A DNA stretch of 13,864 nt, taken from Candidatus Rifleibacteriota bacterium (GTDB taxonomy: Bacteria > Muiribacteriota > Ozemobacteria > Ozemobacterales > Ozemobacteraceae). The position numbers were made by a program, and so were the translations under genes. This document shows, one piece after another, positions 9,991 to 12,009 of the stretch. The stretch lies in the NCBI GenBank assembly GCA_049325495.1, contig JBMOKV010000334.1, positions 1-13,864 of the forward strand, written 5' to 3'. Below the pieces are notes generated by a model. The model was not told the DNA's origin and searched no databases. It saw nothing but the letters and a program-made list of their open reading frames with translations. Position 1 is the stretch's first letter. Each line of letters starts with the position of its first letter.

Positions 9991-10992
9991 TTAATCAATT
10001 TTTGTTTCGCGAAGCATTTTTGCTGCATCTTCTGGCGGGGTGGGGTTGATGTAGAACCCGGAGCCCCATTCAAACCCCGCGATTTTTGTCAGCTTGGGGA
10101 TAATTTCGATATGCCAGTGATAGAAATCCTTATAAGAATCTGAGCATGGCGAAGTATGAATGACAAAGTTGAAGGGCTGACCCGGCAGCAAAGACTGCAT
10201 TTTAATCAGGGCGGTCTGTAATGCCTTGGCGAGACTTCCAACCATGTGGTTTTCAATCAGTTCAAACGAAGAGGTATGGTGCTTGGGAGTTATTTCCATT
10301 TCAAAGGGAAATCGGGCGGCGAAGGGGCAGAACACAATAAACTGGTCGTCTTCATAAACCACCCTCGAAGCTTCTTTGGTTTCCTGCTTGATTATGTCGC
10401 AGAAAAGGCAGCGATCATGATAATGGTAATACTCGCGGGCTCCTTCCAGCTCTTCTTCAATGCGTTTGGGTATGATAGGGGTCGCGACAATATGCGAATG
10501 GGAGTGGGAAAAGCTTGAAACCCCTTTGCCACTGTTTTTTACGATCATGAAATGCTTGAATCTCGGGTTTTTTTTAATCTCTAGCAAGCGCTGCTTGTAA
10601 GCCCAGATAACTTCTCTTACCTGTTCGAGATTCGCATTCTGCAGGCCAATGTTGTGGCTGGGTGTTTCTACAACAACTTCATGCACGCCGATGGAGTTCA
10701 TGGCGTCAAACATTCCGATGCCCTCACGGCCTGAATCTCCCTCGGGTGCGAGAATGGGCGAGCGGTCAGGTACGATTCTTACCCACCAGCCTTTTGAGTT
10801 GGCAGCTGTGCCGGAGGTTCTGAATGCCAGGGTTTCGCCCGGCGTCAGATGCTCATTCCCTTCACAGAAAGGGCAGGTTTTAGGATCATCGGGGGCTTCT
10901 TCAATTTTTTGAAAATCAGAGGGGCGTTTGCCTCTCTCTGGTGAAATGATTACCCATTGTTTCAAGACCGGATCTTTTCTAAGTTGCGGCAC
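9991..10992 (-). CDS. GalT-like hexose-1-phosphate nucleotidyltransferase paralog B (HIT superfamily, galactose-1-phosphate uridylyltransferase family), 333 aa. Its active site is non-canonical: HSHSH in place of HPHxQ.
   Basis: GTG start with an AGGAG RBS 8 nt upstream. Zn-site motifs CPFCEGNE and GVHEVVVETPSH are present. The active-site segment is SFSHSHSHIVATPIIPKR (minus-strand codons at + coordinates 10492-10506). The C-terminus is IAGFEWGSGFYINPTPPEDAAKMLR. It is about 55% identical to the upstream paralog. Confidence 0.75.
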   Translation of the reverse strand: MPQLRKDPVLKQWVIISPERGKRPSDFQKIEEAPDDPKTCPFCEGNEHLTPGETLAFRTSGTAANSKGWWVRIVPDRSPILAPEGDSGREGIGMFDAMNSIGVHEVVVETPSHNIGLQNANLEQVREVIWAYKQRLLEIKKNPRFKHFMIVKNSGKGVSSFSHSHSHIVATPIIPKRIEEELEGAREYYHYHDRCLFCDIIKQETKEASRVVYEDDQFIVFCPFAARFPFEMEITPKHHTSSFELIENHMVGSLAKALQTALIKMQSLLPGQPFNFVIHTSPCSDSYKDFYHWHIEIIPKLTKIAGFEWGSGFYINPTPPEDAAKMLRETKID

Positions 10993-11007
10993 TGATAGAA
11001 CTCCTGA

Positions 11008-12009
11008 CTATTCTGGACCGTTTTTCAAAAGGAACTTCGTTGCATTTTCCGGGGGAACGGGGTTGATATAGAATCCTGAACCCCACTCAAAACCAGCAAC
11101 CTTGGTTAGTCGCGGCATAATTTCGATGTGCCAGTGAAAGTAGTCAGAGCACAGTTCGCCGCAGGGTGATGTGTGGATAACGTAATTGAATGGAGGATTA
11201 TTGAGGGTTTTAACCAGCCTTCCAAGCGTTCCATGCATAATGTCAGCCAGAGCTTCGGCTTCATTATTATCGATATCTCCGAAAGAATCTTTGTGTTCCT
11301 TGGGCGCAATCCAGGTTTCGAAAGGAAAGCGTGAGGCGAAGGGGGCAAAAGCTACGAACTGCTCGTTTTCGTGAATGATGCGCTCGCCTGAACTAAGCTC
11401 CTGGCGTATTATGTCGCAGAAAACGCAGCGCTCTTTGTAGTAATAATAGCGCTTTGCGCCTTCTACCTCTTCCATGGCTCTTTTAGGGATAATTGGAGTG
11501 GCGATGAGCTGAGAATGAGGGTGATCAAGGCTGGCGCCAGCTGCCGGGCCATGGTTCTTGAAAATCAAAATGTAACGGAAGCGCCGGTCTCTTTTCAAAT
11601 CACGGTAACGATCTGCATAAGTGCGGATGATTCGGGAAATCTGGTCGCGACTGTAGTTGTGAAAACCGTCTTCGTGGCCGGGAGACTCAATGATGACTTC
11701 ATGGGCGCCAATGCCGTTCATCATGTCATAGACCCCGATTCCGGTTCGGTCCAGATCCCCCTCGATCTGCAAGGCGGGGAAGCGATTGGTGATGACTCTG
11801 ACTTCCCAGCCTGGTTGATTCGGCAAGGTTTCCGGGCTGCGGTAAGACATGACTTCATTTGGTGTCATGGATTCATTCCCAGTGCAGAACGGGCATTTGT
11901 TGCTTTGTCTTGGCGGGTTATCAACCTTGAAGTCGCCGGGTTTTTTGGCTTCTTCATGTAAAATTATAACCCAGCGTTTGGTGACCGGATCTTTTCTCAA
12001 CTGTGGCAT
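11008..12009 (-). CDS. galT: GalT-like hexose-1-phosphate nucleotidyltransferase paralog A (galactose-1-phosphate uridylyltransferase family), 333 aa, with a canonical HPHSQ active site.
   Basis: The start is set at MPQLRKDPVTKRW (ATG at 12009), which has an AAGGGAAA RBS and is colinear with paralog B. The ORF-track extension to 12042 lies in the 5'-UTR. Motifs: CPFCTGNE, GIGAHEVIIESPGH, LDHPHSQLIATPIIPKR (+ coordinates 11509-11523), VAGFEWGSGFYINPVPPE. The two genes are separated by 15 bp, so they form an operon. The symbol denotes family membership only; the substrate is unknown. Confidence 0.75.
   Translation of the reverse strand: MPQLRKDPVTKRWVIILHEEAKKPGDFKVDNPPRQSNKCPFCTGNESMTPNEVMSYRSPETLPNQPGWEVRVITNRFPALQIEGDLDRTGIGVYDMMNGIGAHEVIIESPGHEDGFHNYSRDQISRIIRTYADRYRDLKRDRRFRYILIFKNHGPAAGASLDHPHSQLIATPIIPKRAMEEVEGAKRYYYYKERCVFCDIIRQELSSGERIIHENEQFVAFAPFASRFPFETWIAPKEHKDSFGDIDNNEAEALADIMHGTLGRLVKTLNNPPFNYVIHTSPCGELCSDYFHWHIEIMPRLTKVAGFEWGSGFYINPVPPENATKFLLKNGPE

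Follow-up and report, generated by a model that had tools for sequence, protein, structure and literature searches.

Complementary active-site losses in a tandem pair of GalT-like proteins from Candidatus Rifleibacteriota suggest a mixed dimer

Introduction

Why would a bacterium carry, side by side, two genes for proteins resembling galactose-1-phosphate uridylyltransferase (GalT), one of them with a histidine in place of the glutamine of the catalytic motif? This question is raised by a stretch of 13,864 nucleotides from a Candidatus Rifleibacteriota bacterium (GCA_049325495.1, contig JBMOKV010000334.1), hereafter the window. Within the HIT superfamily, the hydrolase branches have His as third residue of the HIT motif, and the transferase and phosphorylase branches have Gln. 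A GalT-fold lineage in which His has been fixed, together with an Asp at the contacting residue, over the whole history of a phylum is therefore a natural experiment on that position. A preliminary description, made from the letters of the window, had taken the upstream copy for canonical and the Gln to His replacement for the key change of the downstream copy. Here both copies are compared with their orthologs, with characterised enzymes and with relatives from other phyla.

Results

The upstream gene, A, occupies positions 11008..12009 of the minus strand, and encodes a class I GalT / ADP-glucose-phosphorylase-like HIT protein of 333 aa from an ATG at 12009. A longer form is possible from an ATG at 12042; MPQLRKDP is the start in all orthologs. 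Gene B (9991..10992, minus strand, GTG start) encodes a divergent paralog, also of 333 aa, with the HSHSH motif and with Zn ligands and nucleophile His unimpaired. The reading of the open reading frames bears out two GalT-like genes 15 bp apart on the minus strand. Their spacer (10993..11007, minus strand) contains caGGAG, a ribosome-binding-like site, and its length ranges from 3 to 45 bp in 39 related loci. Upstream of A lies a candidate promoter, TTGAAC-17-TATAAT (12051..12079, minus strand), identified by consensus match only (10/12).

Both proteins belong to the class I GalT branch of the HIT superfamily (IPR001937; PF01087 + PF02744), as had been proposed. The Pfam gathering thresholds of PF01087 (22.1 bits) and PF02744 (29.2 bits) were passed by A with 65.3 and 36.2 bits, and by B with 40.5 and 41.1 bits. 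The TIGR00209 cut-off of 102.1 was also exceeded (A 117.8, B 110.4), and the NF008724 cut-off of 448 was far from reached (A 147.1, B 134.8). The CPFCxGNE, GxHEV and FEWGSGFYINPxPPE motifs noticed earlier are indeed present in both proteins, and their identity, first given as about 55%, is 50% by BLASTP (164/328). The zinc site (Cys-x-x-Cys, His and first HIT His) and the nucleophile second His were found in 42/42 A-clade sequences (41 orthologs and the A of the window) and in 45/45 B-clade sequences (44 orthologs and the B of the window).

The top solved relative of both proteins is At5g18200 (PDB 1Z84, 2H39, 1ZWJ), with 249 bits and E = 5.5e-73 for A, and 223 bits and E = 6.7e-65 for B (both against 1z84). 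Matches to E. coli GalT reached 75-90 bits (E = 1e-24 for A, 5e-20 for B), so that, among characterised enzymes, the full-length similarity of A and B is closer to At5g18200 than to Leloir GalTs. At5g18200 has been reported to be an ADP-glucose phosphorylase and not a GALT (PMC6329318). In alignments, ADP-glucose phosphorylase is nearer to A and B than Leloir GalT is. The activity of this type that had been suggested for B fits the nearest relative, but it concerns both paralogs alike. At5g18200 shares with A and B the two-HIT-half fold, alignable over its full length, and the zinc site. It has an S-P-x-R-x-K-R-P loop and HSHSQ, and differs from A, which is without the arginine loop, and from B, in which its Gln188 is His, its Asn94 is Asp and the phosphate loop is shorter. 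It is a homodimer encoded by a single plant gene, whereas the bacterial family is tied to glgA. Like the class I GalTs, At5g18200 is dimeric, and the active sites of these enzymes lie at the interface of the subunits (bioRxiv 10.64898/2026.09.13.751320). The Leloir class I GalTs (E. coli GalT, human GALT) also have the fold of A and B, and act by a ping-pong mechanism via a covalent nucleotidyl-His, which A and B presumably share. Their reference residues (E. coli/human) are Gln168/188, Asn77/97, Arg28/48 and Arg31/51. The full Leloir residue set is found in neither protein: B is without the Gln, the Asn and the phosphate-loop Gly, and A without both arginines.

The H-x-H-x-Q-phi-phi motif reads HPHSQLI in A (His163-Pro-His165-Ser-Gln167, 11509..11523, minus strand, codons CAC CCT CAT TCT CAG) and HSHSHIV in B (His163-Ser-His165-Ser-His167, 10492..10506, minus strand, codons CAC TCC CAT TCG CAT). 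The Gln to His change in B is real. Position 167 is His in 55 of the 56 database orthologs, and its codon across 39 loci is CAC in 20, CAT in 18 and CAG in 1. Since both His codons are used and nearly all orthologs have His, this residue is neither an error nor a one-off substitution, which settles the conservation check proposed in the preliminary description. The lone Gln-bearing ortholog, L005, lies inside the B clade and has nearly all other B-specific changes, so that its Gln is a reversion. That the His codon could stem from an error of sequencing or assembly, or that B could be a decaying pseudogene, was a prior possibility only, the window being from a metagenome-assembled genome. It is refuted by the His of independent orthologs, by the use of both CAC and CAT, and by a reading frame intact in all loci with a dN/dS of 0.03, and we regard it as practically untenable.

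The replacement of Gln is, however, just one of about 16 that have been fixed in B. Sixteen positions conserved in at least 90% of single-copy relatives are kept in A and replaced in B, and only 2 show the reverse pattern. The B changes retained at strict thresholds are R12Q, N76D, A80I, G100S, D138E, D142N, Y147H, F151V, loss of Gly158, A159S, Q167H, L168I, K192H and E193D. Asp76 (GAC, 10765..10767, minus strand) replaces a family-invariant Asn (E. coli Asn77, human Asn97). Gln188 of human GALT is in contact with both phosphate and ribose of UMP and, within its own chain, with Asn97 (PMC5081055). Among representatives of the family, the residues at 76/167 were (Asn,Gln) in 145 cases, (Asp,His) in 6, (Asn,His) in 2 and (Asp,Gln) in none. 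The Gln to His change of B is coupled with the Asn to Asp change, and this co-variation points to a functional dyad. The phosphate loop of B has a one-residue deletion; the residue aligned to the catalytic Ser161 of E. coli is Ser in 20, Asn in 19 and Ala in 6 B-clade sequences, and an invariant Ser precedes it by one position within the shortened loop. The arginine loop of B, Ser17-Pro-Glu-Arg20-Gly-Lys-Arg23 (10924..10944, minus strand), which contains the equivalents of E. coli Arg28/Arg31, is kept in 45/45 B-clade sequences.

With H-S-H-S-H-I-V, B again has the third histidine that completes the classic triad of canonical HIT hydrolases (Hint/Fhit), and Asp76 stands at what we take to be the place of Hint's ribose-binding Asp. 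These hydrolases are single HIT domains of about 110-150 aa, whereas B is a two-domain GalT fold of 333 aa with a zinc site. Moreover, B has the three His in register, but Ser and not hydrophobic residues at the x positions, and its weak HIT-domain matches fall in the second, non-catalytic half.

In A, the part of the site contributed in cis is canonical (HPHSQ, Asn75, Gly158, Ser160), and the third HIT-motif residue is Gln in 42/42 A-clade sequences. The same does not hold for the arginine loop, of which a remnant is left, Leu17-His-Glu-Glu20-Ala-Lys-Lys23 (11941..11961, minus strand), degenerate and variable. Of 43 A-clade sequences, 1 still has the first Arg. For the second, the tally covers 42 sequences and gives only the five commonest residues, with a replacement in all 42. 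Four residues have been lost specifically from A, namely Ser17, Arg20, Arg23 and Trp129 (Trp130 in B numbering); all four positions vary in A and are invariant in B, and the first three correspond to Ser25, Arg28 and Arg31 of E. coli. As judged from the alignments, the S-x-x-R-x-K-R-P loop is near-universal in the family, kept by B and lost from A, and the description of A as canonical holds for its HPHSQ site only. Some other HxHxQ representatives are likewise without the loop, which may therefore be dispensable in some contexts. Arg48 of human GALT is said to come from the opposite chain, in one sentence citing a homology-model study, and strands beta1-beta2 of this enzyme make an inter-chain sheet (PMC5081055). 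By our own placement, these strands would lie just upstream of the arginine loop.

The A-then-B tandem was found throughout Candidatus Rifleibacteriota, at every locus with room for both genes. Both genes are under purifying selection (dN/dS, measured against the L006 locus, of 0.016 for A and 0.031 for B). A was monophyletic in 100/100 bootstraps, and B likewise in 100/100, and the two formed an exclusive group in only 8/100. A grouping of B with HxHxH proteins as sisters was recovered in at most 6/100 bootstraps, the deep tree being poorly resolved. The separate clades and the low value for an exclusive group rule out a recent tandem duplication of A, which is also countered by the identity of B to A, 50%, as compared to 47-53% with single-copy proteins of other phyla. 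In a deep 'Riflebacteria' MAG (L086), the order is A-like gene, glgA, B-like gene, and the complementary pattern is seen again.

Lone relatives of the HxHxH/Asp type exist in other phyla (L087, L088, L089), and several keep the first loop Arg, so that B could work well as a homodimer. Paralogs without the nucleophile His recur in the family (HPVSK, HSYSH, HVCSE and others). A general rule, by which a dead or variant paralog always keeps the arginine loop and its partner loses it, did not hold, as several nucleophile-less representatives are also without the loop. A fusion protein, P0121, joins a dead copy with the loop to an active copy without it; it fits an action of the loop in trans, and was given little weight because it is a singleton on one contig.

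The window ORFs that were scanned include no galK, galE or galM, in agreement with the preliminary description, and these genes were also missing from the gene calls of three Rifleibacteriota loci annotated with Pfam. A gal operon context, as for Leloir GalT, is thus absent for A and B. In other phyla, glgA directly follows the GalT-like gene in 22 of 34 single-copy loci, and fusions of GlgA (a 19-member cluster) or of GH57 to a GalT-like domain were also found. The pair has no glgA next to it in the main lineage of Rifleibacteriota. Across the family, the linkage is to glycogen synthase; the suggested role of the pair in glycosylating the neighbouring surface proteins finds no support and was rejected. 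The genes concerned are convergent to the pair, and synteny was seen in only 7 related loci for the large surface-protein gene and in 1 to 19 for the other neighbouring genes. On the other side, a divergently transcribed gene for a 199-aa protein (12304..12903, plus strand) adjoins the pair in 43 related loci. It had no match in Pfam, NCBIfam or PDB, and can be counted only tentatively as part of the system.

Discussion

The normal active site is incomplete in both proteins, a different half being missing from each, and this suggests that they work as a mixed pair. We hold with moderate confidence that A and B diverged long ago, are co-transcribed as a GalT-fold pair and likely form a heterodimer, with a role in alpha-glucan metabolism. 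Formation of the heterodimer, with the arginine loop acting in trans, is the most likely arrangement. The scheme follows from class I GalT-fold enzymes being, as we take it, obligate dimers in which both chains build each active site. Site 1 would combine the Zn-bound His163, nucleophile His165, Gln167, Asn75 and Gly158/Ser160 loop of A, in cis, with the Ser17/Arg20/Arg23 phosphate loop of B, in trans, and would be a complete conventional site for nucleotidyl transfer, of the NDP-hexose : phosphate or hexose-1-phosphate type. Site 2 would be made of the His165 nucleophile of B, its His167 paired with Asp76 and its phosphate loop shorter by one residue, with the degenerate loop of A in trans. 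Its chemistry would not be that of site 1: the acceptor or leaving group may have changed, or the site may bind a nucleotide in a regulatory role. That the partner gene has in turn lost its arginine loop makes this a concrete and cheaply testable prediction.

The two proteins might instead form two independent homodimers, a possibility that we doubt but take seriously. A would then be an NDP-glucose phosphorylase/transferase without an arginine loop, and B a separate HxHxH/Asp enzyme, active for instance in NDP-sugar hydrolysis, like canonical HIT hydrolases, or on another nucleotide or acceptor. HxHxH/Asp-type proteins do occur as lone genes in other phyla, B has self-sufficient site parts (arginine loop, Zn ligands, nucleophile), A and B are not recent duplicates as judged from their rare exclusive grouping, and in the literature hydrolases are paired with HxHxH, transferases and phosphorylases with HxHxQ. 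This pairing is not absolute: the Ap4A phosphorylase of Mycobacterium tuberculosis has a full HxHxH HIT motif and is yet a phosphorylase (PMC7705103), so that HxHxH alone does not imply hydrolysis. That enzyme has a hydrolase-type triad, as B does, but belongs to a different HIT branch without the class I GalT fold, and serves only as a caution against inferring function from the third HIT residue. More difficult for two homodimers are the strict co-occurrence of the genes, at such short spacing, and the state of A. The variability of its loop suggests release from constraint and not re-purposing, yet its cis site is invariant and its dN/dS very low. An A protein without two near-universal phosphate-binding arginines is hard to square with this constraint, unless a partner supplies the arginines. 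B could also be a non-catalytic or regulatory pseudoenzyme, which would only donate its arginine loop and sugar-binding loop to the site of A, in analogy with GlgD or with the large subunit of ADP-glucose pyrophosphorylase in plants. The family repeatedly yields paralogs without the nucleophile His, the Ser161-aligned residue varies in the B clade, and site 2 would be without trans arginines. We nevertheless judge this improbable, as His165 and all four Zn ligands are present in 45/45 B sequences, the replacements were fixed to specific new residues without drift, an invariant Ser is kept in the shortened loop, and Asp and His co-vary in a way that suggests a functional dyad.

Finally, both proteins carry in public records the name galactose-1-phosphate uridylyltransferase, and pass TIGR00209. 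That they are true Leloir enzymes, B being a tolerated variant, is nonetheless very unlikely, given their NF008724 scores far below cut-off, the lack of galK, galE and galM in the window ORFs scanned and the three annotated loci, a nearest characterised relative that is reported to be an ADP-glucose phosphorylase, and the family link to glgA. A tolerated His is also difficult to reconcile with p.Q188H of human GALT, which was reported in a galactosaemia patient (PMC11110268); nothing directly useful was found in the literature on the biochemistry of Q168H/Q188H. The public name is probably misleading for metabolic reconstruction of these genomes. The A/B pair most likely converts NDP-glucose, its putative substrate, to glucose-1-phosphate and back, in the service of alpha-glucan (glycogen) metabolism and not of galactose catabolism.

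The heterodimer that we favour may be taken one step further, although we think it rather unlikely that all of the following holds. The pair would be an obligate asymmetric heterodimer, with two sites of different chemistry on a single scaffold, and would provide a GlgC-independent route to and from the substrate of glycogen synthase. One site would be that of a canonical NDP-glucose phosphorylase/transferase. The other, the His-Asp site, would use another acceptor (water, or another phosphate ester) or sense a nucleotide, and the same route would operate in many other anaerobic phyla via single-copy relatives. Such a route does not figure in the current accounts of bacterial alpha-glucan metabolism known to us. 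Separately from this extended reading, the strong adjacency of the family to glgA, sometimes a fusion, across many uncultured phyla suggests an ADP-glucose phosphorylase-type step in bacterial glycogen metabolism. A step of this kind is not mentioned in the accessible part of a 2024 review of prokaryotic alpha-glucan enzymes, and nothing directly useful was found in the literature on Riflebacteria glycogen metabolism or bacterial galT-glgA clusters.

We know of no earlier example of a heteromeric class I GalT-fold enzyme, and the A/B pair, if confirmed as a heterodimer, would be the first known to us. Duplicated subunits, one catalytic and one modified, make the glycogen or starch precursor in heteromeric ADP-glucose pyrophosphorylases (GlgC/GlgD; small and large subunits in plants). 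These offer an analogy only, their fold and chemistry being unrelated to those of A and B.

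Organisation and conservation of the gene pair

Genes A (11008-12009, minus strand, ATG start at 12009) and B (9991-10992, minus strand, GTG start) lie head to tail in the window, which is a MAG contig of Candidatus Rifleibacteriota. Each encodes 333 aa and a 15-bp spacer containing GGAG separates them, lengths and spacing that the preliminary description had also read. The HIT motif, taken directly from the DNA, is His-Pro-His-Ser-Gln in A (11523-11509, minus strand) and His-Ser-His-Ser-His in B (10506-10492, minus strand). Both proteins passed Pfam PF01087 and PF02744 as well as TIGR00209, which confirms their assignment to the GalT branch of the HIT family; the NF008724 cut-off is far above both scores. 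By BLASTP they share 50% identity (164/328), and the earlier figure of ~55% is corrected accordingly. A predicted, promoter-like sigma-70-like site, TTGAAC-17-TATAAT (12079-12051, minus strand), is found 5' of A. No clear terminator was found 3' of B; tRNA-Ala(GGC) (9869-9943, minus strand) begins 48 bp downstream of the B stop, preceded in that interval by its own promoter-like site, TTGACT-17-TAAACT with extended TG.

A is directly followed by B in every Rifleibacteriota contig with room for both, with spacers of 3-45 bp in 39 loci. All A orthologs start with MPQLRKDP and carry HPHSQ, replaced by HSHSQ in one locus. Other phyla have a lone H-x-H-x-Q gene per locus, 52-60% identical to A and 47-53% to B. 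In neighbour-joining (NJ) trees A and B were each monophyletic in 100/100 bootstraps; they formed an exclusive group in only 8/100, so that B is an old paralog lineage rather than a recent copy of A.

One neighbour, upstream of A, is strongly conserved: in 43 related loci the pair is flanked by this gene (12304-12903, plus strand), whose 199-aa product carries Cys/His residues at its N-terminus. The gene and A are generally transcribed divergently; in locus L005 it runs in the direction of A and directly precedes it. Searches of Pfam, NCBIfam and PDB gave no match for this protein, which may be a regulator. Synteny is retained in only 7 related loci for the large surface-protein gene and in 1 to 19 for the remaining neighbours. 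The proposal that the pair serves glycosylation of the neighbouring surface proteins is not upheld, given this low synteny and the convergent orientation of their genes relative to the pair.

The histidine of B is real

With B as query, 56 homologs were found at 65-100% identity, followed by a sharp fall to 56% or less. H-x-H-x-H is present in 55 of these 56, and H-x-H-x-Q in every more distant full-length match (P0057, P0059 to P0120); P0058, a fragment of a B ortholog, keeps the His. Codon 167 of B, among the 39 loci with both genes, is CAC in 20, CAT in 18 and CAG in 1. The substitution first noticed in this contig is thus genuine, and neither a sequencing error (both His codons are used) nor a one-off change. 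A dN/dS of 0.031 for B against the nearest ortholog (0.016 for A) excludes a pseudogene. The sole Gln-bearing ortholog, P0045 of locus L005, nests within the B clade and has nearly all remaining B-specific residues; its Gln is therefore a secondary reversion.

Residues replaced in B

B was compared with 34 single-copy relatives and the A clade at positions at least 90% conserved elsewhere. Sixteen positions are replaced, each fixed to one new residue, and 14 of them met the strictest thresholds: R12Q, N76D, A80I, G100S, D138E, D142N, Y147H and F151V; in the phosphate loop, A159S and loss of the Gly aligned to E. coli Gly159; then Q167H, L168I, K192H and E193D. The zinc ligands and nucleophile His165 are retained in 45/45 B sequences.

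Gln188 of human GALT touches the phosphate and ribose of covalent UMP and the phosphate of hexose-1-phosphate, and has Asn97 as an interaction partner within its own chain (PMC5081055). Asn97 aligns with Asp76 of B, so an interacting Gln/Asn pair is replaced by His/Asp. Among 50%-identity representatives and single-copy loci the two changes co-vary: (Asn,Gln) was counted 145 times and (Asp,His) 6 times, against 2 for (Asn,His) and 0 for (Asp,Gln). His is found at the position of B residue 167 in 10/134 full-length representatives.

Several other full-length representatives lack the nucleophile His. P0131, P0134, P0155, P0162, P0192, P0207 and P0254, with HPVSK, HPVSY, HSYSH, HVCSE, HSISE, HCSSR and HPYSE, are probably non-catalytic paralogs, judging by these motifs.

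HIT reviews give H-x-H-x-Q as the GalT-branch signature and H-phi-H-phi-H as that of hydrolase branches; the Ap4A phosphorylase of M. tuberculosis is a known exception to the motif rule (PMC7705103). The change p.Q188H in human GALT has been recorded in a patient with galactosaemia (PMC11110268), which suggests that a true uridylyltransferase may not accept His here without effect.

An arginine loop lost in A, and two possible dimer models

The mirror analysis gave only four A-specific departures, at Ser17, Arg20, Arg23 and Trp129 (Trp130 in B numbering). The first three belong to an S-P-x-R-x-K-R-P loop that the alignment shows conserved from E. coli (Ser25, Arg28, Arg31) to Pyrobaculum and Arabidopsis, and that is invariant in B. 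In the A clade its place is taken by variable stretches, for example ILHEQAKTP or TILENPKGP. In GALT the loop arginines bind the UDP-hexose phosphates, Arg48 is described as supplied by the chain opposite Gln188, and the beta1-beta2 hairpin, which we place just ahead of the loop, is an inter-chain sheet (PMC5081055). Active sites lie between the two chains in the dimers formed by class I GalTs and by At5g18200 (bioRxiv 10.64898/2026.09.13.751320). We consider it probable that the arginine loop acts in trans.

The losses would then be complementary, A keeping the cis half without the presumed trans half, and B keeping the trans half with its cis half remodelled. An A/B heterodimer would consequently have two different sites: a fully canonical one, made of A cis residues and the B arginine loop, and a non-canonical one, made of B His/Asp residues and the degenerate loop of A. 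In L086, from a deep-branching 'Riflebacteria' MAG, an A-like gene without the loop likewise accompanies a B-like one (P0137; HSHSH, Asp76) with it. Alternatively, A and B may be two homodimers, an explanation that we retain: stand-alone HxHxH/Asp proteins are found in other phyla, and some H-x-H-x-Q representatives exist without the arginine loop. We put the chances of the heterodimer at about even. As a variant of a known enzyme kind, the A/B pair is genuine, conserved and under functional constraint, and it brings a specific, testable structural hypothesis.

A probable link with alpha-glucan metabolism

The most similar solved protein to both A and B is At5g18200 (1z84), for which ADP-glucose phosphorylase rather than GALT activity has been reported (PMC6329318). 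The suggestion of such an activity for B thus holds as a lead, without its restriction to B, since both copies fit. GlgA, called by PF08323 plus PF00534 and a KTGGL motif, is encoded directly 3' of the GalT-like gene in 22/34 single-copy loci (L049-L084; Zixibacteria, Ignavibacteria, Elusimicrobia, Nitrospirae and others), and an NTP_transf_4 plus hexapeptide gene sometimes precedes the latter. The order in L085 and L086 is A-like, glgA, B-like; glgA is not adjacent to the pair in the main Rifleibacteriota lineage. GlgA/GalT-like fusions form a 19-member cluster from many contigs, GH57/GalT-like fusions also occur (P0136 and P0165 are listed for GlgA/GH57), and one HxHxH relative adjoins a GH77 gene. 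As described initially for the window, no Leloir genes lie near the pair among the ORFs scanned there; nor do any among the called genes of three Pfam-annotated Rifleibacteriota loci. The At5g18200 likeness, the glgA linkage and fusions and this lack of Leloir neighbours lead us to place A and B in a putative NDP-glucose/glucose-1-phosphate interconversion for alpha-glucan metabolism.

The literature covered, which is incomplete, yielded no account of a class I GalT-fold subtype with HxHxH/Asp, of a heteromeric enzyme of this fold, or of glgA linkage of GalT-like genes; all three are also absent from the accessible part of a 2024 review on prokaryotic alpha-glucan enzymes.

Two further arrangements were seen. 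In L089 (6001-8948, Candidatus Methylomirabilis), genes for an isochorismatase-family (nicotinamidase-like) protein and for NAPRTase come after another, distinct GalT-like gene of the HxHxH/Asp type, and ~6 kb upstream is a glycogen phosphorylase gene. P0126, an 871-aa transcript product of the euglenid Eutreptiella gymnastica, has two complete GalT-like copies (HAHSQ, HPHSQ) in one polypeptide.

Other genes of the window

A 1520-aa protein with many Ig-like domains (105-4667, plus strand) is followed by a 216-aa protein (4657-5307, plus strand), the ORFs overlapping by 11 nt. They have in common a ~180-aa C-terminal module, with ...WICPG(T/S)GSA...FDG(V/I)(Q/K)LE... among its shared stretches, and their termini are NEW and YEW. 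Next come a 204-aa protein with a weakly GspG pseudopilin-like N-terminus (5240-5854, plus strand) and a protein with a signal peptide, a LysM domain and an SGNH/GDSL-like hydrolase domain (5873-7063, minus strand). A 132-aa ORF made nearly entirely of Asp/Glu repeats (13036-13434, minus strand) overlaps a plus-strand Leu/Arg-rich ORF; L001 and L003 have similar-sized unannotated genes at the equivalent position, beside ffh. Finally, an 843-aa protein (7098-9629, plus strand) matches PF11978, the shoulder domain of the Major Vault Protein (1.8e-28), and a vault repeat, has a long coiled-coil-like C-terminal tail, is 86% identical to its copy in L008, and looks like a bacterial MVP-like protein.
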